Shown piece after piece: positions 4,395 through 35,730 of a stretch of DNA of 64,000 bases. The DNA is from Tequatrovirus BCH953P4. Numbering within the stretch: position 1 is the stretch's first letter; each line of letters starts with the position of its first letter. The position numbers and the translations under genes are program-made. The notes under the pieces are model-generated. The model searched no databases. It was not told where the DNA came from and worked only from the letters and a program-made list of their open reading frames with translations. Location of the stretch: sequence record OZ035789.1; one strand, given 5' to 3'.

Positions 4395-4445
4395 CACTAT
4401 ATCCTTAATTCTTTAATTCTATATGCCCTAGGTTAAACATAGGGA

Positions 4446-4453
4446 TATAAATA
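4446..4453 (+). promoter_or_regulatory. Late promoter TATAAATA (second before gene 19)
   Basis: exact motif ~15 nt upstream of ATG. Confidence 0.6.
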
Positions 4454-4467
4454 CTACAGAGGCTAAT

Positions 4468-4959: not shown

Positions 4960-4991
4960 AATGAATGGGGAGAAATCCCCATCCTGCTTAA

Positions 4992-6616
<1,625 letters not shown>

Positions 6617-6617
<1 letters not shown>

Positions 6618-6865
6618 TGGAAGGTTTAATTGAAGCTATTAAATCAAACGACCTCGTAGCCGCTCGTAAATTATTTGCTGAAGCCATGGCTGCAAGAACG
6701 ATTGATTTAATTAAAGAAGAAAAAATCGCTATCGCTCGTAATTTCTTAATCGAAGGTGAAGAACCTGATGACGAGGATGATGACGAAGACGAAGATAGTG
6801 ATGATAAAGACGACAAAAAAGACAAAGATTCTGATGAAGATGACGAAGACGAGGATGATGAATAA
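6617..6865 (+). CDS. 67: Prohead core protein gp67
   Basis: 82 aa with extremely acidic D/E-rich C-terminus; position between 20 and 68. Confidence 0.85.
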
Positions 6866-7290
6866 TGCTTCTGATCCCTGAAACTCATGAATTAGTTCTC
6901 GAGAATGTCGAAGCACTTATTCCTGAAGCACAGGGTCGCTTTGACGAATTGTCTTCTGCTTTAAATAAAGACGATATAAATACAATTGTCGAGAATATGC
7001 TTGATGATGAAACTGATTTAGCGGTTGCATTAGCTTCTATTAATGAAAATATGCCGTTAAATGAATTCATCGTTAAACATGTTTCCGCCCGTGGTGAAAT
7101 TACTCGCACTAAAGATCGCAAAACCCGCGAACGAAATGCATTTCAAACCACTGGGCTGTCTAAAGCAAAACGTAGACAAATTGCTCGTAAAGCTACCAAA
7201 ACGAAGATTGCCAATCCAGCAGGTCAATCTCGTGCTCAGCGTAAGCGTAAAAAAGCTCTTAAACGCCGTAAAGCATTAGGATTAAGCTAA
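6865..7290 (+). CDS. 68: Prohead core protein gp68
   Basis: 141 aa, basic C-terminus, synteny. Confidence 0.85.
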
Positions 7291-19273: not shown

Positions 19274-19290
19274 GAATAAAAGGAGCATCT

Positions 19291-20040
19291 ATGGCAAACA
19301 TTATTCGTTGTAAATTACCAGATGGTGTTCATCGTTTTAAACCATTTACGGTAGAAGATTATCGAGATTTTTTGTTAGTTCGAAACGATATAGAACATCG
19401 GTCACCACAAGAACAAAAAGAAATAATTACTGATTTAATTGATGATTATTTTGGAGACTATCCGAAGACTTGGCAACCATTTATATTTTTGCAGGTATTT
19501 GTAGGGTCGATAGGTAAAACTAAAGTACCGGTCACATTTGTATGTCCAAAATGTAAAAAAGAAAAGACAGTTCCATTTGAAATATATCAAAAAGAATTAA
19601 AGGAACCTGTTTTTGATGTAGCTAATGTTAAAATTAAATTAAAGTTTCCTTCTGAGTTTTATGAAAATAAAGCAAAGATGATTACTGAAAATATTCATTC
19701 TGTTCAAGTAGATGAAATATGGTATGATTGGAAGGAAATTAGTGAATCAAGCCAAATAGAACTTGTTGATGCCATCGAGATAGAAACATTAGAAAAAATT
19801 CTCGATGCAATGAATCCTATTAATTTAACTCTACATATGTCATGCTGTAATAAGTACATTAAAAAATACACTGATATAGTAGACGTGTTTAAGCTATTAG
19901 TTAACCCAGATGAGATATTTACTTTTTATCAAATTAATCACACACTCGTAAAAAGTAATTATAGCTTAAATTCAATAATGAAAATGATTCCTGCCGAGCG
20001 CGGATTCGTATTAAAACTGATTGAGAAGGATAAACAATAA
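19291..20040 (+). CDS. 51: Baseplate hub assembly catalyst gp51
   Basis: 249 aa, synteny. Confidence 0.88.
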
Positions 20041-21212
20041 TGAGTATGTTGCAACGCCCCGGATATCCAAATCTCAGCGTTAAATTATTTGATAGCTACG
20101 ACGCTTGGAGTAATAATAGATTTGTTGAATTAGCTGCTACTATTACCACATTAACTATGCGGGATTCTCTTTATGGACGAAATGAAGGAATGCTGCAGTT
20201 TTATGATTCTAAAAATATCCACACAAAAATGGATGGAAATGAAATAATTCAAATTTCTGTAGCTAATGCAAACGATATTAATAATGTTAAAACACGAATT
20301 TATGGATGCAAGCATTTTTCCGTGTCAGTAGATTCAAAAGGCGATAACATCATTGCTATTGAATTGGGAACTATTCATTCTATAGAAAATCTTAAATTTG
20401 GTAGACCATTTTTCCCTGATGCAGGTGAATCTATAAAAGAAATGCTTGGCGTCATTTATCAGGATCGCACATTATTAACTCCAGCAATAAATGCTATAAA
20501 TGCTTATGTTCCTGATATTCCATGGACTAGCACATTTGAAAACTATTTGTCATATGTAAGAGAAGTTGCTCTAGCTGTAGGAAGCGACAAATTTGTATTT
20601 GTGTGGCAAGACATCATGGGAGTTAACATGATGGACTATGATATGATGATAAATCAAGAACCATATCCAATGATTGTCGGTGAGCCGTCTTTAATAGGTC
20701 AATTCATCCAAGAATTAAAATATCCATTAGCATATGATTTCGTTTGGTTGACTAAATCGAATCCTTACAAACGTGACCCAATGAAAAATGCTACTATCTA
20801 TGCGCATTCATTTTTAGATTCTTCATTGCCAATGATTACTACAGGAAAGGGTGAAAACTCTATTGTAGTGTCAAGGTCAGGTGCTTATTCTGAAATGACT
20901 TATAGGAATGGATATGAAGAAGCTATTCGTCTTCAAACTATGGCACAATATGACGGCTATGCTAAATGTTCTACTGTCGGTAATTTTAACTTGACTCCTG
21001 GCGTTAAAATTATTTTTAATGATAGTAAAAACCAATTTAAAACAGAATTTTACGTTGATGAAGTTATCCATGAATTATCCAATAATAATTCAGTAACTCA
21101 TCTATATATGTTCACTAATGCAACGAAACTGGAAACAATAGACCCAGTTAAGGTTAAAAATGAATTTAAATCTGATACTACCACTGAAGAAAGTAGTTCT
21201 TCCAATAAGTAA
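20040..21212 (+). CDS. 27: Baseplate hub protein gp27
   Basis: 390 aa, synteny. Confidence 0.92.
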
Positions 21213-21693
21213 TAAAGAAGTTTCTATTCCTAAAATGGGTCTTAAACATTATAATATTTTAAAAGATGTTAAAGGTCCTGATGAAAATTTAAAACTTCTT
21301 ATTGATTCTATTTGTCCGAATTTATCACCGGCAGAAGTTGATTTCGTTTCTATTCATTTATTGGAATTTAATGGAAAGATTAAATCTCGTAAAGAAATAG
21401 ATGGTTATACTTATGACATTAATGATGTTTATGTATGCCAAAGATTAGAATTTCAATACCAAGGAAATACATTTTATTTTAGACCTCCTGGAAAATTTGA
21501 ACAATTTTTAACGGTGAGCGATATGTTATCCAAATGCTTGCTTAAGGTCAATGATGAAGTTAAAGAAATTAATTTTCTTGAGATGCCAGCATTCGTTTTA
21601 AAATGGGCAAATGATATTTTTACAACTTTAGCAATTCCTGGCCCTAATGGTCCAATAACCGGAATTGGCAATATTATTGGATTATTTGAATGA
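21160..21693 (+). CDS. 28: Baseplate hub distal subunit gp28
   Basis: 177 aa; overlaps 3' end of gene 27. Confidence 0.85.
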
Positions 21694-23462
21694 AAAAGCC
21701 ACAAGAAATGCAAACGATGCGTAGAAAAGTTATTTCAGATAATAAACCAACACAGGAAGCGGCTAAATCCGCTTCTAACACTTTATCTGGACTTAACGAT
21801 ATATCTACGAAATTGGATGATGCTCAAGCTGCTTCTGAATTAATTGCTCAAACTGTCGAAGAAAAATCGAATGAAATAATTGGAGCAATTGACAATGTAG
21901 AAAGCGCAGTGAGTGATACTACTGCTGGTTCTGAGTTAATTGCTGAAACTGTCGAAATTGGCAATAATATTAATAAAGAAATCGGTGAATCGCTCGGAAG
22001 TAAATTAGATAAATTAACGAGTTTACTCGAGCAAAAAATCCAGACAGCCGGAATTCAACAAACAGGAACTAGTTTAGCTACGGTTGAAAGCGCTATTCCT
22101 GTTAAAGTTGTTGAGGACGATACAGCTGAATCTGTGGGTCCTTTATTACCGGCTCCTGAAGCAGTTAATAATGATCCTGATGCTGATTTTTTCCCTACCC
22201 CTCAGCCAGTTGAACCTAAACAAGAATCGCCAGAAGAAAAACAGAAAAAAGACGCATTTAACTTAAAATTATCTCAAGCTTTAGATAAATTAACAAAGAC
22301 TGTTGATTTTGGATTTAAGAAATCCATTTCAATTACTGATAAAATATCAAGCATGCTATTTAAGTATACCGTTAGTGCTGCTATTGAAGCTGCTAAAATG
22401 ACTGCAATGATATTGGCTGTTGTTGTTGGAATAGATCTGCTGATGGTTCATTTCAAATATTGGTCAGATAAATTTTCGCAGGCTTGGGATTTGTTTAGTA
22501 CAGACTTTACTAAATTCTCTAGCGAAACCGGAACATGGGGTCCTTTATTACAGAGCATCTTTAGTTCTATTGATGAAATTAAAAAATTCTGGGAAGAGGG
22601 AGATTGGGGCGGTTTGACGGTAGCTATTGTAGAAGGGCTTGGAAAGGTTCTTTATAATTTAGGAGAACTTATTCAGCTTGGAATGGCTAAATTATCTGCT
22701 GCAATTCTTCGAGTCATTCCTGGCATGAAGGATACCGCTGATGAAGTAGAAGGAAGAGCACTAGAAAATTTCCAAAATTCTACTGGAGCATCTCTCAATA
22801 AAGAAGACCAGGAAAAAGTTGCAAATTATCAAGATAAACGAATGAACGGAGACCTTGGTCCGATAGCAAAAGGATTAGATAAAATTGCTAATTGGAAAAC
22901 TCGTGCATCTAACTGGATTCGTGGCGTTGATAATAAAGAAGCATTGACAACCGATGAAGAACGCGCAGCAGAAGAAGAAAAATTAAAGCAACTTTCACCT
23001 GAAGAAAGAAAAAATGCTTTAATGAAGGCTAATGAAGCCCGTGCCGCGATGATTCGTTTTGAAAAATATGCTGATTCAGCTGATATGAGTAAAGACTCAA
23101 CGGTTAAATCAGTTGAAGCTGCCTATGAAGACCTTAAAAAACGGATGGATGACCCGGATTTAAATAATTCACCGGCAGTTAAAAAAGAACTTGCTGCTAG
23201 ATTTTCTAAAATTGATGCTACTTATCAAGAGCTCAAGAAAAATCAGCCTAATGCCAAACCTGAAACTTCTGCTAAATCGCCAGAAGCAAAACAAGTCCAG
23301 GTAATAGAAAAGAACAAAGCACAGCAAGCTCCTGTTCAACAAGCATCTCCTTCGATCAATAATACTAATAATGTTATTAAGAAAAATACTGTCGTTCATA
23401 ATATGACACCCGTAACGAGCACGACTGCTCCTGGTGTATTTGATGCGACTGGAGTTAATTAA
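21690..23462 (+). CDS. 29: Baseplate hub / tail length determinator gp29
   Basis: 590 aa, synteny. Confidence 0.92.
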   Translation: MKKPQEMQTMRRKVISDNKPTQEAAKSASNTLSGLNDISTKLDDAQAASELIAQTVEEKSNEIIGAIDNVESAVSDTTAGSELIAETVEIGNNINKEIGESLGSKLDKLTSLLEQKIQTAGIQQTGTSLATVESAIPVKVVEDDTAESVGPLLPAPEAVNNDPDADFFPTPQPVEPKQESPEEKQKKDAFNLKLSQALDKLTKTVDFGFKKSISITDKISSMLFKYTVSAAIEAAKMTAMILAVVVGIDLLMVHFKYWSDKFSQAWDLFSTDFTKFSSETGTWGPLLQSIFSSIDEIKKFWEEGDWGGLTVAIVEGLGKVLYNLGELIQLGMAKLSAAILRVIPGMKDTADEVEGRALENFQNSTGASLNKEDQEKVANYQDKRMNGDLGPIAKGLDKIANWKTRASNWIRGVDNKEALTTDEERAAEEEKLKQLSPEERKNALMKANEARAAMIRFEKYADSADMSKDSTVKSVEAAYEDLKKRMDDPDLNNSPAVKKELAARFSKIDATYQELKKNQPNAKPETSAKSPEAKQVQVIEKNKAQQAPVQQASPSINNTNNVIKKNTVVHNMTPVTSTTAPGVFDATGVN

Positions 23463-23470
23463 GGAATAAT

Positions 23471-24565
23471 ATGGCAATTGTTAAAGAAATAACTGCTGAT
23501 TTAATTAAAAAGTCCGGTGAGAAAATTTCAGCCGGACAGAGTACTAAATCAGAAGTAGCAACTAAAACATACACTGCCCAGTTTCCAACTGGGCGTGCTA
23601 GTGGTAATGACACTACAGGGGACTTCCAGGTAACAGATCTATATAAGAATGGATTATTATTTACTGCATACAATATGTCATCTAGGGATTCTGGAAGTCT
23701 TAGATCGATGAGATCTAACTACTCTTCTTCATCTTCGAGTATTTTAAGTACAGCTAGAAACACTATTAGTAGTACAGTATCAAAACTGTCAAATGGATTA
23801 ATATCAGATAATAATTCAGGAACAATAAGTAAAGCCCCTGTTGCAAATATTCTTTTACCAAGATCTAAATCCGATGTTGATACATCATCACATAGATTTA
23901 ATGATGTTCAAGAAAGTCTTATCAGCAGAGGAGGAGGTACTGCTACTGGTGTGCTAAGTAATATTGCTTCAACTGCAGTATTTGGGGCACTGGAAAGTAT
24001 AACACAAGGTATAATGGCTGATAATAATGAACAGATTTATACGACAGCCAGAAGTATGTATGGTGGTGCTGAAAATAGAACTAAAGTGTTTACTTGGGAT
24101 TTGACTCCACGTTCAACAGAAGATTTAATGGCTATTATTAATATCTATCAATATTTTAACTATTTTTCTTATGGTGAAACTGGTAAATCTCAATATGCTG
24201 CTGAAATAAAGGGGTATTTAGATGATTGGTATCGTTCTACGTTAATTGAACCTTTATCTCCGGAAGACGCAGCTAAAAATAAAACACTATTTGAGAAAAT
24301 GACATCGAGTTTAACGAACGTTCTTGTAGTTTCAAACCCTACAATTTGGATGGTGAAAAACTTTGGTGCAACATCTAAGTTTGACGGAAAAACGGAAATA
24401 TTTGGTCCATGTCAAATCCAGAGTATCAGATTTGATAAAACACCTAATGGTAACTTTAACGGATTAGCTATTGCTCCAAACCTCCCTAGTACATTTACTC
24501 TCGAGATTACTATGAGAGAAATTATCACGTTAAACCGTGCTTCTTTATATGCGGGGACTTTTTAA
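23471..24565 (+). CDS. 48: Baseplate tail-tube junction protein gp48
   Basis: 364 aa, synteny. Confidence 0.92.
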   Translation: MAIVKEITADLIKKSGEKISAGQSTKSEVATKTYTAQFPTGRASGNDTTGDFQVTDLYKNGLLFTAYNMSSRDSGSLRSMRSNYSSSSSSILSTARNTISSTVSKLSNGLISDNNSGTISKAPVANILLPRSKSDVDTSSHRFNDVQESLISRGGGTATGVLSNIASTAVFGALESITQGIMADNNEQIYTTARSMYGGAENRTKVFTWDLTPRSTEDLMAIINIYQYFNYFSYGETGKSQYAAEIKGYLDDWYRSTLIEPLSPEDAAKNKTLFEKMTSSLTNVLVVSNPTIWMVKNFGATSKFDGKTEIFGPCQIQSIRFDKTPNGNFNGLAIAPNLPSTFTLEITMREIITLNRASLYAGTF

Positions 24566-25530
24566 TGTATTCTTTAGAGGAATTTAATAATCAAGCAATA
24601 AACGCAGATTTCCAACGTAATAATATGTTTAGCTGCGTTTTTGCGACAACTCCATCAACTAAAAGCTCTTCGTTGATAAGTTCAATTAGCAACTTTTCTT
24701 ATAATAACTTGGGTCTAAATTCAGACTGGTTAGGATTGACTCAAGGTGATATTAATCAAGGAATTACCACGCTAATTACTGCTGGCACACAAAAACTGAT
24801 AAGAAAATCAGGGGTTAGTAAATATCTTATTGGTGCCATGAGTCAACGTACAGTTCAAAGTTTATTGGGCTCATTTACAGTTGGTACATATTTAATTGAC
24901 TTCTTTAATATGGCATATAACTCATCTGGATTGATGATATATTCTGTAAAAATGCCAGAGAATAGATTATCCTATGAAACTGACTGGAACTATAATTCTC
25001 CTAATATTCGTATAACTGGGAGAGAATTAGACCCTTTGGTTATTTCATTTAGAATGGATTCAGAAGCTTGTAACTATCGTGCAATGCAAGACTGGGTTAA
25101 CGCTGTTCAAGACCCAGTAACTGGACTGCGTGCTTTGCCGCAAGATGTCGAGGCAGATATTCAGGTTAATCTTCATGCTCGTAATGGATTACCTCATACT
25201 GCAGTGATGTTCACCGGATGCATTCCAGTGTCAGTGAGCGCTCCTGAGTTATCATATGATGGAGATAACCAAATAACTACATTTGATGTTACTTTTGCGT
25301 ATAGAGTCATGCAGGCTGGGTCGGTTGATAGACAAGCTGCGCTTGAGTGGCTTGAATCTGCTGCTATAAATGGCATTCAAAGCGTTCTCGGAAATAGTGG
25401 AGGTGTTACTGGATTATCTAATTCGCTTTCACGACTTAGTAGATTAGGGGGAACTGCAGGAAGCATTTCAAACATTAATACTATGACAGGAATTGTCAAT
25501 TCGCAAAGTAAAATATTAGGAGCAATATAA
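24565..25530 (+). CDS. 54: Baseplate tail-tube initiator gp54
   Basis: 321 aa, synteny. Confidence 0.92.
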   Translation: MYSLEEFNNQAINADFQRNNMFSCVFATTPSTKSSSLISSISNFSYNNLGLNSDWLGLTQGDINQGITTLITAGTQKLIRKSGVSKYLIGAMSQRTVQSLLGSFTVGTYLIDFFNMAYNSSGLMIYSVKMPENRLSYETDWNYNSPNIRITGRELDPLVISFRMDSEACNYRAMQDWVNAVQDPVTGLRALPQDVEADIQVNLHARNGLPHTAVMFTGCIPVSVSAPELSYDGDNQITTFDVTFAYRVMQAGSVDRQAALEWLESAAINGIQSVLGNSGGVTGLSNSLSRLSRLGGTAGSISNINTMTGIVNSQSKILGAI

Positions 25531-25534
25531 CAAT

Positions 25535-25552
25535 GGGGACCTTTCGGTCCCC
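25535..25552. terminator. Bidirectional hairpin GGGGACC-TTTC-GGTCCCC
   Basis: perfect 7-bp GC stem with tetraloop and flanking T-run, between gene 54 (+) and minus-strand operon. Confidence 0.6.
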
Positions 25553-25558
25553 ATATTT

Positions 25559-25849
25559 TTATTTACGGAATGAAATAAAAGCAGCAACTGAAGCAACTAA
25601 ACTGTCTTCAATATAAACCTCAATTTTTACCGGAGCTTCTGACTCAAATTTACCTGTTACTACACCTTGGAAAATACTTTCAGTCTGTTCTGGCTTTGAA
25701 AAATTTTCAGAAGGAAAAATTCCGAACTTTTTATCTGTTCCAAAAATTTTGATAAATTCATCGTAAACTGCTTCATTAAAAGCATTATCAGCAGGAATAA
25801 CGCCTTCAACTACAAGTTCTTGACCTAAAAAGCGCAAAGAAGATTTCAT
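25559..25849 (-). CDS. Hypothetical protein (T4 alt.-3 position)
   Basis: 96 aa ORF; preceded by the repeated promoter/hairpin cassette. Confidence 0.65.
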   Translation of the reverse strand: MKSSLRFLGQELVVEGVIPADNAFNEAVYDEFIKIFGTDKKFGIFPSENFSKPEQTESIFQGVVTGKFESEAPVKIEVYIEDSLVASVAAFISFRK

Positions 25850-25854
25850 TTTGT

Positions 25855-25910
25855 GTTCCTCATGTTATGTCAGTAAGATTACTATAACACAACACGAGGG
25901 ACTTGTAAAC
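25855..25910 (-). promoter_or_regulatory. Repeated promoter/hairpin cassette, copy 1
   Basis: coding strand GTTTAC-N17-TATAGT with 13-bp inverted repeat whose 3' arm contains the GAGG Shine-Dalgarno; 50/53 identical to copy at 41657..41712. Confidence 0.55.
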
Positions 25911-27967
25911 TACATTTTGAACTTTTTAGACATTCCGTTGATGTTAACCAAAGAAGCTAAGATTTGAGAAACTTCGTTTTCCTCTTCTTTTGATTCTTCT
26001 ACAAGGAATTGATTAAATCCAGTCATTGGACGAACTTCACCAGTTTCCATCAAATGATCGCCATCATATACTGATTCCTCTAATTGTTCAGAAGGAGGAA
26101 CGATTGTACCTTCGATTAGATACTTGTTATAAGCAGTTTCTTTCATAAAGTACGTACTTACTTTATTAATCTTCAGTAAAATTCCACGCGGTAGAATAAC
26201 TTCAGCTTCTGATGGAAATCCTGTTAAATGACCTGGAACGATAACTTTGATTCGCTCAGCTCCTTTAATTACCATACCCACGCTAGTTTCAGCATTTTCA
26301 TTAGCGTATGTAGAATGACTACCCATATGCATCAAATCTTCTGCATCAACGGAACCTTCTCCTTCACCAGAAAATACTGCGCCGGAATCATCTAGAGCCA
26401 TATAGTTTTTACCATGCTCACCGAAGATATTTGGTTTAAGCGATGTAGATACGAAGTTCTTGAAATAGAACATTTTGTTTTCAATGTTATGACGCAAAGT
26501 TTTAAAGGTAACTTCTTGTCCACGGTAAAGTGTAGTTCCTGGAGGAAGAACTGAACCTTTAGCGAATGCAGAATCCAACGTCTCGATATGCTTAATAGCA
26601 CGTTCCATATATTCTTCGCGGGTAGAATCAGGTTTACCCAAAAGGAATGAGTTCATTTCAACATATGAATCTGCACAATAATCTTCAATTACATCAGATT
26701 CAGCTTGAGTTAATCCTTTTGGAGTTACTTCAGTACTTGCATATTCATATGCCTGGGTAGCAGATTCATTAATCAATTTATAAATGCCATTCATTACAAA
26801 TTGAATAATAGCTGTCTTTTCATCTGGCGTAGCTTTAGAACCTTTAACCAAATCATTGATAATTTTCTTAATAACATCAAAGCTGTTAGAAATATTAATA
26901 TCAGCAAGATCGCTTAAAATTTTATCAGTTTTATAATCAAAGAATTCTTTATTTTTTAAATATTCTTGAGAACCTTGATACGATATATCGCTCTGCAACT
27001 TGATGGATGGATCACGTAAACGTGCATGGGCTAATGCAATATGATTTCGGAAGTTTTCTAGTTCATAATCGTTAGATTTAAAACGAGAAGCACTTCTCAT
27101 ACCACCGATAGCTCCTTTGCTGAAGTTTGAACCAATCTGAATAACGCCAGAGTTCATTGGTCCTTCTGCTTTATATACCGGAACTTTAGATTCAAACTCT
27201 TGATATTTCTTGGCAGCGAAGCTATCACCCTGAAGTGAAGCATCAACAGTAGAATATTGAGCTTGTGCTGCTAATCGACGACTAATTTTAGTTTTCTGAA
27301 TAACAGCTTGATCCGTGCGCTTATCATTTTCTAAAGCAATAGAAGCAGCAACAGCGACAGCTTTAGGAACAGCATTTCCTGTTTTAACGTCTACATAAAC
27401 ATCACCAACCTTTGATTCAACTTTTGTGAATAACTCAGTTGAAATAGGAGGTACACCTGGAATGTCTTCTAAATTGGCATTTTTACGGTAAACCATAATA
27501 TATGCATACTTTTTATCATAGTCCCAGATTTCCTTTAAAAGAACATATCGACCTGCTCCTTTGGTACGTACTAAACGGTCAGCAATAACTTGCATTTGAC
27601 GAGCAGCGCCATTTGTTTTACTCTTTAGTACACGGAATAAGCACGCGTCAATTTTATACTGCTTCATTGTTTGAAGAGCAGTATCAAAAACAGCATTAAT
27701 GACGCCAATTGGATTTCCACCCAAGTTTCTAAGCTTAACCAGTGATAATTTCTCGTTGACACCTATCATTACGATATGCATCATTTTATCGCCCGGCTTA
27801 ACGTTTTTATTTGTATCACCACCGGAGGTGTATGTACAAAATCTAAATCCAGGAAGCACGCTTTCTTCGCCGGCTTGAATAGCAAAAATTTGAGGTATTT
27901 TATGCTTAGGATTTAAGTTAACAACCGGCGCCGAAGCGCCGTCAAATAATTCTGTAATAAGTTCCAT
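25910..27967 (-). CDS. Alt-like ADP-ribosyltransferase paralog (full length)
   Basis: 685 aa; N-terminus MELITELFD...NLNPK.KIPQIF and R-S-ExE motifs (YRGQ, FVSTSL, EAEV) shared with Alt; divergent middle. Confidence 0.8.
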   Translation of the reverse strand: MELITELFDGASAPVVNLNPKHKIPQIFAIQAGEESVLPGFRFCTYTSGGDTNKNVKPGDKMMHIVMIGVNEKLSLVKLRNLGGNPIGVINAVFDTALQTMKQYKIDACLFRVLKSKTNGAARQMQVIADRLVRTKGAGRYVLLKEIWDYDKKYAYIMVYRKNANLEDIPGVPPISTELFTKVESKVGDVYVDVKTGNAVPKAVAVAASIALENDKRTDQAVIQKTKISRRLAAQAQYSTVDASLQGDSFAAKKYQEFESKVPVYKAEGPMNSGVIQIGSNFSKGAIGGMRSASRFKSNDYELENFRNHIALAHARLRDPSIKLQSDISYQGSQEYLKNKEFFDYKTDKILSDLADINISNSFDVIKKIINDLVKGSKATPDEKTAIIQFVMNGIYKLINESATQAYEYASTEVTPKGLTQAESDVIEDYCADSYVEMNSFLLGKPDSTREEYMERAIKHIETLDSAFAKGSVLPPGTTLYRGQEVTFKTLRHNIENKMFYFKNFVSTSLKPNIFGEHGKNYMALDDSGAVFSGEGEGSVDAEDLMHMGSHSTYANENAETSVGMVIKGAERIKVIVPGHLTGFPSEAEVILPRGILLKINKVSTYFMKETAYNKYLIEGTIVPPSEQLEESVYDGDHLMETGEVRPMTGFNQFLVEESKEEENEVSQILASLVNINGMSKKFKM

Positions 27968-27970
27968 GAT

Positions 27971-30019
27971 TTATCCTTGAACGAACTTGTAAGGCATGTT
28001 TGTAATATCTATGCAAGACGCAATAATTCCAAGAGATGATTCTACTTTCTGTTTAACATTTGATGAAACAAATGATGCAAAGTCAACTCTATCTTCTATA
28101 TCACCTGTCATTGTAACCAATTCACCAGTTTCCATTAAATGGTCTCCGTCATAGATTACCGATTCGGTGAGTTCTTCTGTGGTCATAACTTCAGCTTGAA
28201 TAAGCTTGTTGTTAGTTTTAACTGTTCCATCATTGTAAGATGCATCGGTTATTTTATTAACTTTGACCATTAATCCACGTGGCAAAATGACTTCCATTTC
28301 ATTTGAAGGCGCTAAACTTCCACCGGGTAAAACAACATTGACCTTATCAGCCCCAGTAATAACCCATCCAATTCCAACTAAATTATCGCTAGAATTTACT
28401 AGTCCTTCATCAGTTTTATCAATAGAAACACTTAGACGCTTTTCGTCTGGTAAAACACCTATAGATGAATCAGTCATCCAAGTACCAAAAATATTTGGAT
28501 ATAATGATGTTGACACAAAGTTTCTAAAATAAAAAACTCGATTTTTTACCATTGCTTCATATATTGAAGGTAACATTCGTTGTGAACGATACAAAGTAAT
28601 ACCTTTTGGTAATCGTTCACCATTTTTAAAGGCTGAATCTAAATTATCAATGGCTTGTTCTATTTCAGGTGCTGTTAAAATACTTGTACGCTCATCTGGA
28701 TTATATAATCCCAAAAGAGCATTATTCATGTCTACGTATCCTGAACCTACATATTCACGAATTCCGCGTTTTTGCGCTGGTGTGTATTTAGATGAATCTT
28801 TATTTTCGACTATAGGATGTAATGACCATCCAGCGGTAAGAGCATATCCACGTAATTCTCTTCGAATAATCTTTGTTTTTATTGCATTCCAAGAATTTTG
28901 TACTAACTCATTTGCAGCATCTTGGTTTAAATGCGAATGTTTGTTAATATTTCTTTCAAACCAAGCACCTTTATATTTTTCTAAAGTATCATCGACGATA
29001 GAAGCAATAGTTTCTAAAGTTTTTATTGAAGTAATAGATTCTTTTCGTAATTTTTCTAAAGCTTTATTTTTTATTTCTGCATTAATAATGGATTCTTTAT
29101 CTTCAGGAATTATAGAAGCTTCTCTGAATGCCATCCCAGCTGTAATACTGCTAAGAGCATTCTCTAGTGCAAATCCTGAAGTAGAAATTACCGTTAATTC
29201 ATTAGAATCAGAAATTAAAGGCGCGTCCGCTGGTTTATTTAATTCTGCCGCTGAAGCCTCAAATTTTTGAAACATCGGTGTTTCAAATCTAGAAGATTCC
29301 AATGACTGACTTTGTGCAATTGCTCTACGGGAAATTTTAACTTTAACGATTACAGCTTGGTCAGAACGTTTATCATTTTCTTGTGCAATAGATGCTGCAA
29401 TTGCCTCATTTTTAGTTACTTGAGCTCCAGTATCTTTATTGATATAAACATCACCGACCTTCGATTCAACTTTAGTAAAGAGCTCGGTACTAATTTCCGG
29501 AACTCCTGGAATGTCTTCTAGTGATACATTTTTGCGATGTATAAGAATATATGCATACTTTTTATCGTAATCCCAGAGTTCCTTAAGAAGGACGTATCTG
29601 CCACCTGAACGACTACGGATAAGTCTATCAGCAATAACTTGAATTTGTCGAGCTTGACCAGCGGTTTTAGACTTAAGAATACGAAGCATACAAGCATCAA
29701 TTTTATACTGGCGCATTGTTTGCATTGCAACAGTAAAAACTGAATTGATATAATTAATTGGGCTTGGACCAAGACCTTTTAATTTAGCAATTGAACCTTT
29801 AGCAGTTAATGTAAAAGGAACAATATGCATCATTTTATCGCCCATCTTTAAATCGCGATTAGTATCACCTCCAGATGTATAGGTGCATAAACGAAAGCCT
29901 GGTTGTTCAATTGCATCATCAACATGAACTGAAAAAATTTGCGGTATTTTCTTCTTTGGATTTAAGTTTGTAATCGGAAGAGTAGTATCTTCGTCAAATA
30001 ATTCTGTAATAAGTTCCAT
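27971..30019 (-). CDS. alt: Alt ADP-ribosyltransferase
   Basis: 682 aa from second Met; matches T4 Alt as remembered; motifs YRSQ, FVSTSL, EMEV. Confidence 0.9.
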   Translation of the reverse strand: MELITELFDEDTTLPITNLNPKKKIPQIFSVHVDDAIEQPGFRLCTYTSGGDTNRDLKMGDKMMHIVPFTLTAKGSIAKLKGLGPSPINYINSVFTVAMQTMRQYKIDACMLRILKSKTAGQARQIQVIADRLIRSRSGGRYVLLKELWDYDKKYAYILIHRKNVSLEDIPGVPEISTELFTKVESKVGDVYINKDTGAQVTKNEAIAASIAQENDKRSDQAVIVKVKISRRAIAQSQSLESSRFETPMFQKFEASAAELNKPADAPLISDSNELTVISTSGFALENALSSITAGMAFREASIIPEDKESIINAEIKNKALEKLRKESITSIKTLETIASIVDDTLEKYKGAWFERNINKHSHLNQDAANELVQNSWNAIKTKIIRRELRGYALTAGWSLHPIVENKDSSKYTPAQKRGIREYVGSGYVDMNNALLGLYNPDERTSILTAPEIEQAIDNLDSAFKNGERLPKGITLYRSQRMLPSIYEAMVKNRVFYFRNFVSTSLYPNIFGTWMTDSSIGVLPDEKRLSVSIDKTDEGLVNSSDNLVGIGWVITGADKVNVVLPGGSLAPSNEMEVILPRGLMVKVNKITDASYNDGTVKTNNKLIQAEVMTTEELTESVIYDGDHLMETGELVTMTGDIEDRVDFASFVSSNVKQKVESSLGIIASCIDITNMPYKFVQG

Positions 30020-30042
30020 CATAGCCTCTCTAGTGTTTATTC

Positions 30043-30050
30043 TATTTATA
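30043..30050 (-). promoter_or_regulatory. Late promoter TATAAATA for alt
   Basis: minus-strand TATAAATA ~22 nt upstream of alt ATG. Confidence 0.6.
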
Positions 30051-30055
30051 AAATT

Positions 30056-30073
30056 AAAGGCCCGAAGGCCTTT
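30056..30073. terminator. Hairpin AAAGGCC-CGAA-GGCCTTT
   Basis: perfect stem with tetraloop between gene 30 operon and alt. Confidence 0.5.
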
Positions 30074-30260
30074 AATAATCTAGTGGTAAGAGAGTACGAT
30101 ATATTTCAAACTTTGGACCTTTTTCATAAGCATCAAAAGTTTCTGTGAATTTATTATAAGCATATGCATCGATAAATTCAATCATGATTTGTGATACAGA
30201 AGTAGAAACATCTCCACCTTCTTTTTGAGCCACGACAATTGTTTCTAAGTAAGCTTTCAT
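30072..30260 (-). CDS. Hypothetical small protein between gene 30 and alt
   Basis: 62 aa; start overlaps gene 30 stop. Confidence 0.45.
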   Translation of the reverse strand: MKAYLETIVVAQKEGGDVSTSVSQIMIEFIDAYAYNKFTETFDAYEKGPKFEIYRTLLPLDY

Positions 30261-31720
30261 AGACCAGTTACCTCATGAAAATCACCAAATACATCCTCGA
30301 ATGTATTAGCTTTCATTTTATCTTCACGTAAACGAATCGCAATCGGAAGAAATAATTTAACGTAATCAGTACGGCCATCAGATTTTAACCAACCGTTGCA
30401 TTCGCACTCTAGAATTTTTCCAATATAATAATTTTGGTTTTCCATAATGCGAGTACGGTCAAGTTCATGTGATTTTACGCCGGCTTTATCTTTTAAGCCT
30501 GAACCAGCATTTACTTTAATTTTTCCACACTCTGATTCAAGAATAAATCCACCTGCTTTAGTAGGGTCTTTACGGTGAGGATAAATTCCTACAATTTTTA
30601 AATCAACATCAATTACTTCTTTAAATTTATAGAGATTTTTTGAACGAGCATTTTCCCATAATCCATCGATATTTTTGAGAATAATACCTTCAAGACCTTG
30701 GTCAATATACTTTTTATAAATTACCTTAGCTTCATCTAGGTTATTTACTACCTGGTTTTCAATTAAAATTACTTTATCATAACCTGATGTCATTTGTTCT
30801 AGTTTAGAAAAACGTACATCATACTTTAAACGAAATGCAGGAAGATCGTATATTTCTACCAACGGGACATAATCCCAGACCTGAAACTTCATGCATTGAG
30901 CTTCTTTTTCAGAAATGGTTCCCTTTAAAGATTTATTGGCGATGCCATTAGATGCAGTACGTGATTCAGCTACTTCTGTGAAGTCTTTAACTTTGCTGTT
31001 TTCAGGATGAGCATCAAAAAGAAAATCTAGGCCTTCTGGCTCCTTTTTAACTTGCTCATGGTATACCAATTCGCCATCAATTAACACGCCTTCTGGATGA
31101 ATCTGGCGGGCTTCAGCGGTCATTTTGATTAATTCTTCCTTAAGAAGATCTAATCCTAGATATTCATTACCAGCTCGTGATAAAAGACGAACATCATCTA
31201 ATTCATCACCTCTGACTTCGGCAAAGCACCGAGCCCCATCAGCTTTTAACTGGGCAAAGGCTGGAAATTTGATATTCTTATTAATGCCTTTTTCATCATA
31301 AGAACTTGCAAGCATTTGAGGTTGTTCAGGAATTAAACCTGGCCAAACTTTGTTTGCAATAGATACTGAAGCACCACATTCAAGGTCTCGCATCATCACT
31401 CGACGCAAAACTTCAACATCATCTTTTTTACCATCGGTGATATATCCAGTTAATTCCTCAATTGCTGCATTTCCAGTCAATTTCCGAGTAGCTAATGTGA
31501 ATTCAATGAAGTCAAGCATATCGGTAAGAGTCAACATTCCAAAACTCTGGGTAGCAATACCAGGTTTAGGCCATTTCTTGATATAATACTGCAACCCACG
31601 AGAATAAGTCAGACGATATACTCGTTTAAGCAATTCATTATCTTTATTCTTTTCAAGAATTGCTTGCTTCTGCTTAGTTGAACCAATAGATGCTATTTCG
31701 TTCAGAATTTTAAGAATCAT
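30257..31720 (-). CDS. 30: DNA ligase gp30
   Basis: 487 aa; adenylation motif KADGAR. Confidence 0.95.
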   Translation of the reverse strand: MILKILNEIASIGSTKQKQAILEKNKDNELLKRVYRLTYSRGLQYYIKKWPKPGIATQSFGMLTLTDMLDFIEFTLATRKLTGNAAIEELTGYITDGKKDDVEVLRRVMMRDLECGASVSIANKVWPGLIPEQPQMLASSYDEKGINKNIKFPAFAQLKADGARCFAEVRGDELDDVRLLSRAGNEYLGLDLLKEELIKMTAEARQIHPEGVLIDGELVYHEQVKKEPEGLDFLFDAHPENSKVKDFTEVAESRTASNGIANKSLKGTISEKEAQCMKFQVWDYVPLVEIYDLPAFRLKYDVRFSKLEQMTSGYDKVILIENQVVNNLDEAKVIYKKYIDQGLEGIILKNIDGLWENARSKNLYKFKEVIDVDLKIVGIYPHRKDPTKAGGFILESECGKIKVNAGSGLKDKAGVKSHELDRTRIMENQNYYIGKILECECNGWLKSDGRTDYVKLFLPIAIRLREDKMKANTFEDVFGDFHEVTGL

Positions 31721-31986
31721 TATTCATCCTTCAGAGTTTGGTTTACAGCTCTATTATAAATCAATTCATCATTAAGCTCAGTCAAAGACTTATGATATGT
31801 GGTTCTAACTTTATTTCCTTGCATCCAGTGCTTGACGTAAATGAAACCTTGCTCTACACATTTTTTAAAAATTCGTTCGTCTTTTTGAGCTCGGAATTCT
31901 GGATTGCATCTAAAAAATTGATTTACGTGACCGTAATCACGTGTAGTATTACCTTCATTTTCATAAATGGTATGAACAACAAACAT
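31720..31986 (-). CDS. Hypothetical protein (gene 30 downstream cluster)
   Basis: 88 aa, overlaps gene 30 start codon. Confidence 0.65.
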   Translation of the reverse strand: MFVVHTIYENEGNTTRDYGHVNQFFRCNPEFRAQKDERIFKKCVEQGFIYVKHWMQGNKVRTTYHKSLTELNDELIYNRAVNQTLKDE

Positions 31987-32825
31987 TAGAATGCTCCTTG
32001 GAAAATATTATCACCACTAGTAGGTCTATTATACAAATACTCTATGCCACCAGGTTTAATATAGTTCCATGTCTGAAACGGATGTGTCTGATATGGATGA
32101 TATAGATGATTATAAGGATTAAATCCAGGAGTTCTCCAGGTAGTGTTCCAAGGAAAAGAATCGTTTTTGATCATCTTCTCAATTACATCTTTTATAACTT
32201 TTTCACTATCAAAACTTTCTTTATTTTCCTTCGATGGAAAAAGCTTATTCTCTACATCATTCCATGTATAAACTCGCTGTGCAGTTTTTGGAATACTGTC
32301 ACGCTCTCCTCGAGCCATCCAATAAACTGGAACATTTAATATTTCACTCGCATGATCACAGTGGTGAGCGAGATCGTCAATATAACAAATTACGTTATAT
32401 TTCTCTTTTGCCTTTTTGAACAACTCTTCTTTTGAAGAATCATGACCACACATCAGTACTTCTGAGAAGGCACCAGGAAAAAGAGCATTCAAATTAAATT
32501 GACGATTCAGCAGAGCGTCAATAGAATCACCCAGTGCTGTAACAGCTACAAAATTATAATCTTCTTTTAATTTGTTAATTACACACAGGGCATCTTTATA
32601 TGGAGACAAGTAACGAATAAAATCTGAACGATTATATTTTTCAATTAACTTGACACCAAGTTCTTCATCGCAATTAAAGAGCTTACCAGGAGAAATAAAT
32701 TTTTCGTCCTGAATCATTTTTAAAATATGTTCTAATGGAAGATTATATTTTTGGGCAAAATAAGGAAGGCCTGATTGCCAGCTTAAACACACCCCGTCAA
32801 TATCAGTCAAAATAGTAGGCTTCAT
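31986..32825 (-). CDS. HAD-superfamily phosphatase-like protein
   Basis: 279 aa; N-terminal ILTDIDGV resembles HAD motif I (DxDG). Confidence 0.6.
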   Translation of the reverse strand: MKPTILTDIDGVCLSWQSGLPYFAQKYNLPLEHILKMIQDEKFISPGKLFNCDEELGVKLIEKYNRSDFIRYLSPYKDALCVINKLKEDYNFVAVTALGDSIDALLNRQFNLNALFPGAFSEVLMCGHDSSKEELFKKAKEKYNVICYIDDLAHHCDHASEILNVPVYWMARGERDSIPKTAQRVYTWNDVENKLFPSKENKESFDSEKVIKDVIEKMIKNDSFPWNTTWRTPGFNPYNHLYHPYQTHPFQTWNYIKPGGIEYLYNRPTSGDNIFQGAF

Positions 32826-33286
32826 AGAGAGTCTCTTAATAGGTTTAACACATCAATAAATTCAGCTTCGGTTAATATTGTATCATCTTTTGTTAGACCA
32901 CTAGCCATGCTGTGCTTCAAAACTTTTCCTTTTGAGGCTTGTAAGGCATCACGAAACCCCTTGTTTTGAATCGCTGCTTCAAAATATGCATTTGTGTATA
33001 ATTCTTTCCACGCCGGGGAATATCTTGAAAACGGAACTCCAATCCAGAAGAGGGTCCCACGGTCCTGAGCTCTAGCATAAGACCTTCCAGCTTGTTGGGC
33101 GGCAAGCCCGGATAACCCAAATATACGACGTTGTTGTTCAACATTTTTCACCTTACACCCTTGGAGGAATCCTTCAAGACCTCCAAATTGAATACCATCC
33201 ATAACGAAAGGCCATTGGGCGAAATTACTTAATGCACATGATGGCCACCTAAAATTGCTTCTAATCTCTAACTCAGACATTTTCAA
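32822..33286 (-). CDS. NADAR/YbiA-like (DUF1768) domain protein
   Basis: 154 aa; SNFAQWPFVMDGIQF...EGFLQGCK resembles YbiA motif SNF..WP..DG...E..FQ..K. Confidence 0.55.
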   Translation of the reverse strand: MKMSELEIRSNFRWPSCALSNFAQWPFVMDGIQFGGLEGFLQGCKVKNVEQQRRIFGLSGLAAQQAGRSYARAQDRGTLFWIGVPFSRYSPAWKELYTNAYFEAAIQNKGFRDALQASKGKVLKHSMASGLTKDDTILTEAEFIDVLNLLRDSL

Positions 33287-33479
33287 TGCTTATAATTTCA
33301 ACATCAGCCCAATGACCATAGCAAGGAAGACGAAATTCAACTGGCCAGTTAGGGTCCTTTTCTAATATAATAGACTCAACTCGTGGTTCTTCATGTTCAT
33401 CAGTATATGGATTTTTATCTGTTACTTTATATGTGACCTTAATGTACTGAATTCCAAAAATCTTATTAATTATATTCAT
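33273..33479 (-). CDS. Hypothetical protein
   Basis: 68 aa ORF in operon. Confidence 0.55.
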   Translation of the reverse strand: MNIINKIFGIQYIKVTYKVTDKNPYTDEHEEPRVESIILEKDPNWPVEFRLPCYGHWADVEIISIENV

Positions 33480-33673
33480 ACTAATTCCTTTAATCCGTAG
33501 ATAGGAGATAATTCATCACCCATACGAAGGTCTTCATTTCCATCTACCCAGGAAACAATATAAGCCTCTTTTATTTGAATACCACTCCATTTAAATGGAG
33601 GTAGAACCTTAGAAATTAATCCAGGTATACCAACTCCCTTTAATTCAACAGTTTGACCTAAAAAGAATTTCAT
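33476..33673 (-). CDS. Hypothetical protein
   Basis: 65 aa ORF, overlapping stops/starts. Confidence 0.55.
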   Translation of the reverse strand: MKFFLGQTVELKGVGIPGLISKVLPPFKWSGIQIKEAYIVSWVDGNEDLRMGDELSPIYGLKELV

Positions 33674-33960
33674 TAGAACCTCATCTGAAAACCGTGCGAT
33701 TTAACATTACCGCCGCCAATATCAGAAATGTTAATTTCACGCGCAATTGAAGGGTCAATGTCAATTTCGCGATTGAGTTTAGTGATAGCTAAAGTATCAC
33801 GCCCATTTACAGTACGAAACTCTAAAGGACAAACCACATCAACGTAGTTTTTAATCGATTCGCTAGTAGGTTGCAAATGTGCAGGAAGGTCTTTAGGCGA
33901 CTTTGAGAAAACTACTTCGCAGAAGTTTTTACGGGTATCAAAATAAGTAGTCATAAACAT
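33673..33960 (-). CDS. Hypothetical protein
   Basis: 95 aa ORF. Confidence 0.6.
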   Translation of the reverse strand: MFMTTYFDTRKNFCEVVFSKSPKDLPAHLQPTSESIKNYVDVVCPLEFRTVNGRDTLAITKLNREIDIDPSIAREINISDIGGGNVKSHGFQMRF

Positions 33961-34001
33961 AACATTTTCCTCAGTAAGGGGCCAAAGCCCCTCATTTTAT
34001 T

Positions 34002-34367
34002 TTAAATATCAAATTCGTTAAGAACTACATCAAAGATTGCTTCAAGATGCTCAGGTTTAGCTCTGTTACTCAGAATATGACGAATCCAAGTTTTAACCAA
34101 AAGCTTGCGATTAGCACCATTCCAGCAAGGATGAGTCCCTAAATCACGTTGACGAAAATCATCATCCAGAGCGATTTTGAAGTTTGAACCTTCCATTGTG
34201 ATTGAAACCGTGATTCCATTTTCAAATCGCATATAAACGTAATTAGGAGTCATATACTGCTCAATTTCGCATACTGATCCATTTTGATGTTTCCAAAGGC
34301 AAATAGTATCAATAGAACCTGCAATACAATTAGAAACATATTTACGTTCAAAATTGATGTAGTTCAT
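34002..34367 (-). CDS. Hypothetical protein
   Basis: 121 aa from ATG with GGAG RBS (track ORF begins at upstream TTG). Confidence 0.6.
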   Translation of the reverse strand: MNYINFERKYVSNCIAGSIDTICLWKHQNGSVCEIEQYMTPNYVYMRFENGITVSITMEGSNFKIALDDDFRQRDLGTHPCWNGANRKLLVKTWIRHILSNRAKPEHLEAIFDVVLNEFDI

Positions 34368-34394
34368 TTTATTCTCCAAGATGTTTAATTGCGG

Positions 34395-34430
34395 TACAGG
34401 TATATAATATCATATCCTGTACCAAAGTAA
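34395..34430 (-). promoter_or_regulatory. Early-type promoter GTTTAC-N17-TATTAT with 8-bp inverted repeat flanking the -10
   Basis: coding strand GTTTACtttGGTACAGGatatgaTATTATataCCTGTACC; approx. coordinates. Confidence 0.5.
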
Positions 34431-34434
34431 ACAA

Positions 34435-34767
34435 TTATTTTACTACTTTCCAATGCTGCATGTCAAGTTTACCAACTTTTTTCATCTTCTCAATTAAGCG
34501 TTCGGCACGTTGGCGAGCTGTAACATAATACCATTCACCTAATTCATTTTGTTCAATTTTTCCAACGATTACTGTATTCAATTCATAAATCCAACCAGTA
34601 AAGAAATTATGAACTTGAATTGTAAAGGTGAAATCTGTTCCCATACCTTCTGTTGTTTCTACTTCAATAATATCACCTTCAACTGCCATTAAGAACCACA
34701 TAGTTTCATCATATTTACCATTGAAGCATTTAGTTTTAACTGTAGCGTTCAGATTAATCGTTTTCAT
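34435..34767 (-). CDS. Hypothetical protein
   Basis: 110 aa; GGAG RBS; promoter-like GTTTAC-N18-TAGTAT upstream. Confidence 0.6.
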   Translation of the reverse strand: MKTINLNATVKTKCFNGKYDETMWFLMAVEGDIIEVETTEGMGTDFTFTIQVHNFFTGWIYELNTVIVGKIEQNELGEWYYVTARQRAERLIEKMKKVGKLDMQHWKVVK

Positions 34768-34854
34768 TTTATTCTCCTTTGTTTGTGTAAGATAATACTA
34801 TCACAAAGGAACCGTACTGTAAACAACTTTGTGCAATCTTTGGAAAATAAAAAA

Positions 34855-34872
34855 GGACTCCCGAAGGAGTCC
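34855..34872 (-). terminator. Hairpin GGACTCC-CGAA-GGAGTCC with T-run
   Basis: perfect 7-bp stem and tetraloop, followed on minus strand by TTTTTTATTTT. Confidence 0.65.
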
Positions 34873-34877
34873 TTAAC

Positions 34878-35054
34878 TTATGCTTTCTGCTTACCAAAAC
34901 GAGAAGCATCATCTCGAAGAACCGCACGTGCTCGGCGCATGATCTTCTCAACAGTTTGATTGATACGAGAGTTCGACCCACGCTTGTAGCCAGCGCGTTT
35001 AGAATCACCAACTTTCTTTTCAACTGCTTTCTTTGCTTTAGCTTGTTTTGCCAT
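34878..35054 (-). CDS. Small basic protein
   Basis: 59 aa from ATG (MAKQAKAKK...); K/R-rich. Confidence 0.5.
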   Translation of the reverse strand: MAKQAKAKKAVEKKVGDSKRAGYKRGSNSRINQTVEKIMRRARAVLRDDASRFGKQKA

Positions 35055-35342
35055 TATAAATTCTCTTTTAAATGAAAATGCAGGACTTATTGGCATTGCC
35101 TGCGCAAGCCCTCAAGGGGAACATAGGTTTTTGGATATTTAACGACCAGGATAACCATAAACCCGTCATCATACCACCAAGACTTACACAGATAACACTT
35201 TTCTGACGCATGATAGTAACATTCAAGAGGTACACCGTAAAACTGCCGGGGTCTTAAAACTATAATGATTCGCAAATCATTAATCAGACAGTTCGACGGC
35301 TCCTCGATTTAGCTCACACTAAGGCAGTGAATCTCCAATAAA

Positions 35343-35591
35343 TTACTTCAATGTTACCACAAAGTGACGAACTGCTTTTCGTGCAGCAGAAGCCAGAGGC
35401 TTAGCATATTTAAGTTCATCTTTTTCCTGAAGCTCAGCAGCTAATGCAGTTTGAGCAGGATTCAGATGTTTGAAATAACGCAGGATTTCAAGAGCTTCGG
35501 CTTCAACATCAATAGATGCGCCATAGTTTTCGTGACCATTATTCCATGCGTTTCGTTGCAGTTCAAGAGCGTGTTGTAATTGTTTAATCAT
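35343..35591 (-). CDS. rIII: rIII lysis inhibition accessory protein
   Basis: 82 aa; sequence recognised. Confidence 0.9.
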   Translation of the reverse strand: MIKQLQHALELQRNAWNNGHENYGASIDVEAEALEILRYFKHLNPAQTALAAELQEKDELKYAKPLASAARKAVRHFVVTLK

Positions 35592-35730
35592 TTAAAAATT
35601 CTCGTTAGAGATTAAAACTCGGTAGTCACGTTCTTCTGAATTTCATCTTCTTTCGACAGATCTCTCAGTTGTAGACTACCACATAGAATTGTTCGGTTAA
35701 CTTATTATTCCGACACCCAATTCATATTAT

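Follow-up and report, generated by a model that had tools for sequence, protein, structure and literature searches.

An intact paralog of alt in Tequatrovirus BCH953P4 as a predicted second packaged ADP-ribosyltransferase, retained in T4 only as alt.-1 and alt.-2

A 64,000-nucleotide stretch of DNA from Tequatrovirus BCH953P4 (sequence record OZ035789.1), hereafter the window, carries on its minus strand two adjacent full-length genes of the Alt type, namely the T4-type alt and, downstream of it, a paralog referred to here as Alt2. The locus raises the question of whether Alt2 encodes a working ADP-ribosyltransferase (ART) and, if so, whether it reaches the host as Alt does and acts on the same proteins. 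We consider it reasonably probable that Alt2 is a functional Alt paralog, that is, a late-expressed, packaged, gp21-trimmed and injected arginine-specific ART with targets unlike those of Alt. The two genes are as follows (aa, amino acids).

27971..30019, minus strand: alt, T4-type Alt ADP-ribosyltransferase, 682 aa; Pfam PF03496 (2.4e-34), PHROG 802
25910..27967, minus strand: Alt2, paralog of Alt, 685 aa, intact

The gene order on the minus strand is DNA ligase (gene 30), alt.1, alt, Alt2 and alt.-3, followed by the convergent genes 54 and 48. As an earlier first-pass annotation of the letters had described, the open reading frames (ORFs) of 682 and 685 aa lie three nucleotides apart: the alt stop codon TAA (27973-27971) is followed by the spacer "atc" and by the ATG of Alt2 (27967). 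The upstream protein, which that annotation took for T4 Alt, is indeed identical to it (NP_049811) at 674 of 682 residues (99%). Pairwise BLASTP between Alt and Alt2 returned 300 identities in 719 positions (42%, E 9e-161), a similarity far beyond chance. The common MELITELFD start and the R-S-ExE signature attributed to both were found in both: the proteins share YR[S/G]Q, FVSTSL, E-x-E-VILPRG and DGDHLMETGE, they exceed the Pfam ADPrib_exo_Tox (PF03496) cut-off of 23.4 bits (Alt, 118.8 bits; Alt2, 70.5 bits), and each is matched from end to end by PHROG 802, "Alt-like RNA polymerase ADP-ribosyltransferase" (2.2e-255 for Alt2).

Alt2 has the two-domain architecture of the T-even Alt family (PF26846 plus PF03496, PHROG 802), the two Pfam assignments being taken from the precomputed annotation of a 98%-identical cluster representative and of all homologs. 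Its parts are listed below (ARTT, ADP-ribosylating turn-turn loop).

27950..27967, minus strand: codons 1-6, MELITE, predicted N-propeptide ending at the gp21 motif ITE-6
27254..27949, minus strand: aa 7-238, conserved N-terminal alpha/beta domain, Pfam PF26846 (Tevenvirinae_ADPRT), proposed head-packaging/ejection module
26732..27253, minus strand: aa 239-412, clade-specific helical middle domain, proposed target-recognition part
26075..26731, minus strand: aa 413-631, ART domain, Pfam PF03496 (1.6e-19), ending at the gp21-type motif LEE-631
26522-26524, 26447-26449, 26207-26209 and 26201-26203, minus strand: catalytic codons R482, S507, E587 and E589, respectively; the ARTT residue is F584
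25913..26074, minus strand: aa 632-685, predicted C-propeptide, containing the YDGDHLMETGE box (26036-26068)

Identity between Alt and Alt2 is distributed unevenly over these parts, at 68% in the N-domain (residues 1-238), 24% in the middle region (239-412), 38% in the ART domain (413-631) and 44% in the C-terminal tail (632-685). A conserved N-terminus attached to a diversified body, as first proposed, is therefore what the alignment gives, the middle regions showing no profile homology; the strongly diverged part, put at about 350 central residues in the first-pass annotation, comprises only about 175 (239-412).

Absence of the catalytic residues had been named at the outset as one result that would refute the proposal, and the site is intact. 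The PF03496 match covers residues 416-620 of Alt2, and a diverse alignment of 30 family members shows no variation at R482, S507-T-S or E587-A-E589. The AlphaFold2 (AF2) model of Alt2 (mean predicted local distance difference test, pLDDT, 78.3; predicted template modelling score, pTM, 0.67), compared with the PDB by Foldseek, retrieved Vis (5.8e-8), then Certhrax, C3bot, CDTa and VIP2, all with probability 1.0, and the catalytic domain as modelled is of the C3/VIP2 ART fold. A sequence search of solved structures gave no match at E ≤0.01, and an NCBIfam search returned no match. The C3, VIP2, iota, Vis and Certhrax toxins share with Alt2 the fold (template modelling score on the target, about 0.6) as well as the motifs R, S-T-S and E-x-E, at 13-19% identity, but have neither the phage N-terminal module, nor the helical middle domain, nor propeptides removed by a protease. 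The E-x-E form of the motif marks the arginine-specific type among C3- and iota-like enzymes. In T4 Alt, the substitution "E577A" abolishes ADP-ribosylation (PMC11404850); the ExE glutamates of the 682-aa protein are E574 and E576, the latter aligned with Alt2 E589, and the published residue is most likely this second glutamate, E576, with a one-residue offset in numbering.

The ratio of nonsynonymous to synonymous substitution rates (dN/dS) between Alt2 and its orthologs in phages T2 and Bas37 comes to 0.03-0.04 for the whole gene and does not exceed 0.11 in any segment, and it is 0.12 relative to the copy in a more divergent relative (L004). By these ratios, Alt2 appears to be under strong purifying selection, and it looks like a working enzyme. 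A pseudoenzyme or a decaying copy was considered as a candidate and rejected on the invariant catalytic residues and the dN/dS of 0.03-0.04.

How, then, does Alt2 relate to what T4 has at the same place? The first-pass annotation placed only the fragmentary alt.-1 and alt.-2 there, which is correct: where the paralog of the window is one intact frame, the T4 record (NC_000866) shows nothing but two short ORFs, alt.-1 of 61 aa and alt.-2 of 67 aa, and its annotation traces them to an old duplication that involved the first part of alt. Alignment of T4 with the window by blastn delimits the segment that T4 lacks.

25930..27619: segment of 1.69 kb absent from T4, with its junction at an ACT[T/C]TTTAG microhomology

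On its two sides, T4 locus positions 3105-3883 align with window positions 27620-28399 and positions 2601-3113 with 25415-25929, both at about 96.7% identity, and ACT[T/C]TTTAG is a short imperfect direct repeat at the ends of the deletion. From about residue 117 onwards, all of Alt2 is lost to the deletion, the middle and ART domains in their entirety, and a T4 frameshift after GGDTNK divides the remnant into two ORFs, alt.-1 corresponding to Alt2 residues 1 to about 55 and alt.-2 to residues 62 to about 117. PHROGs of 61 and 67 aa, the sizes of T4 alt.-1 and alt.-2, match Alt2 residues 1-56 and 62-117 (2e-40 and 1e-37) much better than they match Alt. Alt2 is thus the intact form of the gene that is left in T4 only as alt.-1 and alt.-2, and the window represents the undeleted state of the T4 locus, paired with a T4-type alt allele.

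The intact pair is by no means rare, contrary to what the first-pass annotation implied. The Alt2 effector half (window 25910-27253) is covered to at least 80% in 400 phage records, at 93.5-98% nucleotide identity, and tblastn gave the same count, with about 400 phage records holding a full-length paralog at least 90% identical. The T4 deletion junction is contiguous in 91 records, T4 and 90 others; these counts are of records, some phages having been entered in both GenBank and RefSeq. An intact tandem pair is thus the prevailing condition within Tequatrovirus. Since the same junction recurs in 91 records, including many natural isolates, the deletion is an old natural allele rather than a laboratory artefact. 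At the protein level, the 90%-identity cluster to which Alt2 is 98% identical has 772 members.

The classical phage T2 has the pair, encoding proteins of 697 and 685 aa with a 3-nt gap, and L004 has kept a pair of 697 and 694 aa. The T2 gene T2_202 (YP_010073850) and bas37_0032, "Alt2" of Bas37, are orthologs of the window gene with the same position, the same 3-nt spacing and the same length of 685 aa; T2_202 is 98-99% identical in amino acids per segment, and the Bas37 ortholog differs at a dN of 0.008. Alt2 is preceded by the T2-type Alt allele in T2 and Bas37 and by the T4-type allele in the window; nothing else substantive differs. Dhakavirus QL01 (positions 864-7124 of the locus L011) has three tandem Alt-family genes of 694, 681 and 707 aa, again with 3-nt gaps; its middle gene is a third effector type, with an ART 32-39% identical to the other types compared. 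As a sequence feature Alt2 is already known and annotated, as "Alt-like ... (x2)" in RefSeq, as "alt.-2" in RB32 and RB51 and as "ADP-ribosyltransferase Alt2" in the BASEL phage Bas37/KarlGJung, and Nolan et al. (2006) described the paralogy of alt and a full-length duplicate in phage 44RR (PMC1524935).

These distributions also bear on the idea that Alt2 is a functionless duplicate on its way to becoming a pseudogene, as in T4. The 1.69-kb deletion in T4 and 90 other records is what such decay might look like, but about 400 records keep the frame whole, the dN/dS of 0.03-0.04 and the invariant catalytic residues are those of a maintained gene, and orthologs are conserved in position in another genus. 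The selection analysis effectively refutes this idea, which we regard as hardly credible.

If Alt2 is an enzyme, its route to the host may be judged from the module that it shares with Alt. As a component of the prohead core, T4 Alt occurs in about 40 copies per head and is ejected together with the DNA (PMC9026906). Mass spectrometry has shown that gp21 cuts T4 Alt at ITE-6 and LTE-619 to give a 68.2-kDa product, a 63-residue C-propeptide being removed (PMC5694885); the mass that we computed for T4 Alt residues 7-619 is likewise 68.2 kDa. Alt2 has ITE-6, identical to that of T4 Alt, and LEE-631, in register with LTE-619, so that a gp21 motif of the form [L/I]-x-E stands at both ends of the predicted mature protein (69.2 kDa), and both E6 and E631 are invariant in the 30 family members. 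The low-confidence parts of the model (pLDDT <50), residues 1-11 and 629-679, match the two predicted propeptides. The DGDHLMETGE box, which had been singled out as a feature common to the pair, is shared by both proteins but is not peculiar to them: it is a family-wide motif that sits directly after the C-terminal cut, and it would therefore belong to the propeptide that is removed.

The N-domains of Alt and Alt2 are saturated at synonymous sites (proportion of synonymous differences, pS, 0.65; dN/dS 0.19), and for this reason their similarity is attributed to selection rather than to recent gene conversion, which was rejected as its source. In the N-domain tree, these domains group by phage lineage over longer times. 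A separate observation concerns the very start of the two genes, where the first 28 nt of alt (29992-30019) and of Alt2 (27940-27967) are identical while synonymous sites are otherwise saturated; this could reflect nucleotide-level constraint on the translation start region, or micro-conversion. N-domains of the PF26846 type were found in 69 representatives in 1.84 billion, nearly always as residues 1-240 of proteins of 600-712 aa, and the domain appears confined to the Alt family at the level of sequence. Fusion of the N-domain to other cargo was looked for and set aside, as nearly all sequence matches still carry an ART, with two weak ones having no Pfam domain. A similar fold at 10-18% identity occurs in large myovirus proteins, some of them annotated with Zeta-toxin, deaminase or ParB domains; other cargos on an N-domain-like fold are suggestive only.

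It might be argued that Alt2 is not injected at all and instead acts late in the producing cell, or that it is mainly a structural part of the prohead core in which ART activity is secondary. The late promoter context speaks for this view, Alt itself has been described as a phage core protein besides being an enzyme (PMC11404850), and a structural role could account for why Bas37 insertion mutants fare less well on K-12 (see below). Nevertheless, catalytic residues that are invariant throughout the family speak against a role that is structural alone, Alt2 has the N-terminal module and the two protease motifs of Alt, which is known to be ejected (PMC9026906), and T4 heads are normal without Alt2. 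A non-injected Alt2 therefore seems to us quite unlikely, and injection remains the preferred reading.

Whether an injected Alt2 would act on the same proteins as Alt depends on the remainder of the protein. The two have the same four-part layout, length, gp21 motifs, R-S-ExE site, late operon and locus, with N-domains 68% identical, but the middle domain of Alt2 has no detectable homology to that of T4 Alt, its ART domain is only 38% identical and falls in another clade, and T4 Alt has a proline in place of F584. When the clade profiles of the middle regions were compared by hhalign, the probability was 1%, and no homology between the Alt and Alt2 middle domains was detectable in this comparison. 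The middle region of Alt2 is confidently modelled as all-helical and has a dN/dS of 0.06-0.11 among close orthologs. In the ART-domain tree, T4 Alt, T2-type Alt, the first QL01 gene and PM2 form the Alt clade, and Alt2 groups with JS10, the third QL01 gene, KM16, Acj9 and Acinetobacter-phage proteins. The aromatic ARTT residue is kept in the Alt2 clade (F584-x-x-E-x-E) and is absent from T4 and T2 Alt. JS10, the third QL01 gene, KM16, Acj9 and the Acinetobacter phage "Alt" proteins, all from other T-even genera, have the ART clade and the ARTT aromatic residue in common with Alt2; JS10 and the third QL01 gene are 45-57% identical to Alt2 in the middle and ART domains, and the middle domains of other members are unrelated. 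The middle and ART domains of Alt2 are thus not orthologous to those of T4 Alt, the modifier of Arg265 of the RNA polymerase alpha subunit. Alt-type and Alt2-type genes coexist in QL01, and because the Alt2-type gene adjoins alt.-3 there, the split of the clades and the gene order predate the divergence of Tequatrovirus and Dhakavirus. Given the unrelated helical middle domain and the different ARTT loop, Alt2 probably modifies host proteins other than those modified by Alt.

The Alt family accordingly resembles a conserved delivery module with swappable effector cassettes, a pattern best seen in the upstream gene. Between the Alt proteins of T2 and T4, identity reaches 99-100% in the N-domain and 92-94% in the C-propeptide but falls to 31% in the middle region and 65% in the ART domain; synonymous divergence (dS) is 0.07 for the N-domain, against more than 1.1 for the core. 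The ART domains of T2 Alt and of the first QL01 gene share 94% identity and their N-domains only 47%, a difference that points to an exchange of cassettes across genera. The alt effector half (window 27971-29305) is itself polymorphic, with the T4-type core in 173 of 514 records. In four metagenomic contigs, a single hybrid gene with an Alt-like N-domain and the middle, ART and C-terminal parts of Alt2 replaces the tandem pair, with crossovers at four different points of the N-domain, and the same hybrid occurs in the isolates ECML-134, SCS4 and Yersinia phage PST; the T4-type Alt effector is lost altogether in these phages. Assembly artefacts are conceivable for the short-read contigs, because the paralogs share exact stretches of 18-32 nt, but isolates show the same architecture, and this explanation was set aside.

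Hints of function come from a 2025 preprint. T4 Alt is reported to help the phage to evade a type I Mokosh system, and the Alt of Bas37 (bas37_0033, the upstream, T2-type gene) cannot substitute for it (bioRxiv 10.1101/2025.11.20.689424); since Bas37 Alt fails to replace T4 Alt against Mokosh, Alt effector variants are not interchangeable. Alt2 is not discussed in that preprint, and the values for it are those of its supplement. In the Bas37 transposon library, bas37_0032 (Alt2) is classed as "Intermediate", with 116/164 TA sites and a mean count of 44.5, the mean counts of Alt, alt.-3 and alt.1 in the same library being 203.6, 169.7 and 197.7, respectively (bioRxiv 10.1101/2025.11.20.689424 supplement). 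The low insertion counts suggest that Alt2 contributes to fitness on K-12.

On this evidence it can be asked whether Alt2 might be a redundant copy, packaged and active on essentially the targets of Alt (RNA polymerase alpha and others) and serving as an extra dose or a back-up. The two proteins have the same architecture, ExE type, operon and propeptides; either gene has been lost in viable phages (T4 without Alt2, ECML-134 and PST without the Alt-type effector); and many proteins have been reported as substrates of T4 Alt (PMC5512222). Against such overlap, the middle domains have no detectable homology, the ART domains (38% identical) belong to separate deep clades that have each been strongly constrained since before the Tequatrovirus/Dhakavirus split, one Alt variant cannot stand in for another against Mokosh (bioRxiv 10.1101/2025.11.20.689424), and Alt2 insertions are under-represented even though Alt is intact. 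We think redundancy unlikely, and distinct targets are retained as the preferred reading.

Several points weigh against that reading. The arginine specificity of Alt2 is drawn solely from the E-x-E rule, and the low counts in Bas37 could arise from toxic truncated products or from local insertion bias. Alt2 insertions are not depleted on the clinical strain CFT073 (log2 fold change, log2FC, 0.11), nor in the one other comparison covered (0.19) (bioRxiv 10.1101/2025.11.20.689424 supplement); as the insertions are not conditionally depleted, no anti-defence phenotype is on record for Alt2. A literature search retrieved no paper characterising the activity or targets of Alt2 and no virion proteomics detecting it. 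Moreover, T4 and 90 other records lack the intact gene, so that it is dispensable at least in the laboratory and under some natural conditions.

The expression signals around the two genes were read within the window, where the following features accompany them.

30072..30260, minus strand: alt.1, 62 aa, upstream of alt; Pfam Phage_blade (6.9e-29), same position as T4 alt.1
30056..30073, minus strand: hairpin AAAGGCC-TTCG-GGCCTTT with a T-rich run, after the alt.1 stop, read from the sequence
30043..30050, minus strand: T4-type late promoter consensus TATAAATA, just upstream of alt
30025..30030, minus strand: Shine-Dalgarno sequence GAGAGG, 5 nt before ATG 30019 and 2 nt before ATG 30022
27974..27978, minus strand: Shine-Dalgarno sequence AAGGA of Alt2, within the last codons of alt
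25559..25849, minus strand: alt.-3, 96 aa, DUF5498, final gene of the predicted late operon
25533..25554, both strands: bidirectional hairpin terminator between alt.-3 and the convergent gene 54, with a 9-bp stem including 6 GC pairs

The consensus TATAAATA has 18 exact matches in the 64 kb, where 8.6 are expected, and a single match within 19274-35730; scanning the window for the exact consensus found none directly before Alt2 or alt.-3. The 3-nt spacing between alt and Alt2 recurs in T2, L004 and QL01, and with the AAGGA sequence inside alt it suggests translational coupling from alt to Alt2. Because there is a single late motif, a terminator after alt.-3 and a Shine-Dalgarno sequence inside alt, one translationally coupled late operon, alt - alt2 - alt.-3, is predicted. 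The locus lies between DNA ligase/alt.1 and alt.-3/gene 54 in a late-promoter context, the setting of the T-even Alt family. A sigma-70-like promoter, TTTACA-17-TATAGT, is found upstream of alt.-3 at 25909..25881, and the hairpin at 30056..30073 was missing from the output of the terminator scan. The start of alt is an ATGATG doublet (30017-30022), of which the in-frame ATG at 30022 would give 683 aa; ATG 30019 (682 aa) is favoured because of its spacing from GAGAGG. As for the downstream neighbour, mutants of T4 with a C-terminal extension of Alt.-3 escape the CmdTAC defence (PMC11618068), and insertions in the Bas37 alt.-3 ortholog are depleted on E. coli CFT073 (log2FC -2.70, adjusted p 0.02; bioRxiv 10.1101/2025.11.20.689424 supplement). 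Across the whole window (1-64000), ARAGORN detected no tRNA gene, and no match to an Rfam family exceeded the gathering score.

A feasible model may be drawn from these elements. Late transcription of alt and Alt2 would start at the single late promoter, and Alt2 would be translated by coupling; its N-terminal module would place it in the prohead core, where gp21 would trim it at ITE-6 and LEE-631 to about 69 kDa, and the trimmed protein would be ejected into the host alongside the DNA. In the infected cell, Alt2 would work as a mono-ADP-ribosyltransferase of the E-x-E type, specific for arginine, on a set of host proteins other than that of Alt, in the service of host takeover or counter-defence. 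A second packaged ART with a different target was the core of the first-pass proposal, and the catalytic residues, fold, selection, late operon and gp21 motifs fit it; what does not survive is the rarity it implied.

Almost everything known of injected phage ADP-ribosyltransferases comes from T4 Alt, yet T4 carries a deletion allele at this locus. By the same reasoning, most Tequatroviruses, T2 included, would inject two different enzymes, and a Dhakavirus possibly three. If Alt2 has targets of its own, part of the early takeover or counter-defence of T-even phages would be invisible in the model system, and the label "RNA polymerase ADP-ribosylase" on Alt2-clade proteins (JS10, Acj9 and those of Acinetobacter phages) would be unverified. 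The sequence observation as such is ordinary and already annotated, but the function of Alt2 can be tested with existing phages (T2, Bas37) and existing methods. It is tempting to speculate, and we put this forward as a tentative view that may well prove wrong, that the Alt2 clade is the more widespread packaged T-even ART, with a distinct host target, possibly in defence or stress, and a measurable effect on fitness, the latter being hinted at by the "Intermediate" class in the Bas37 transposon library; T4 would then lack an injected takeover or counter-defence activity that most of its relatives possess.

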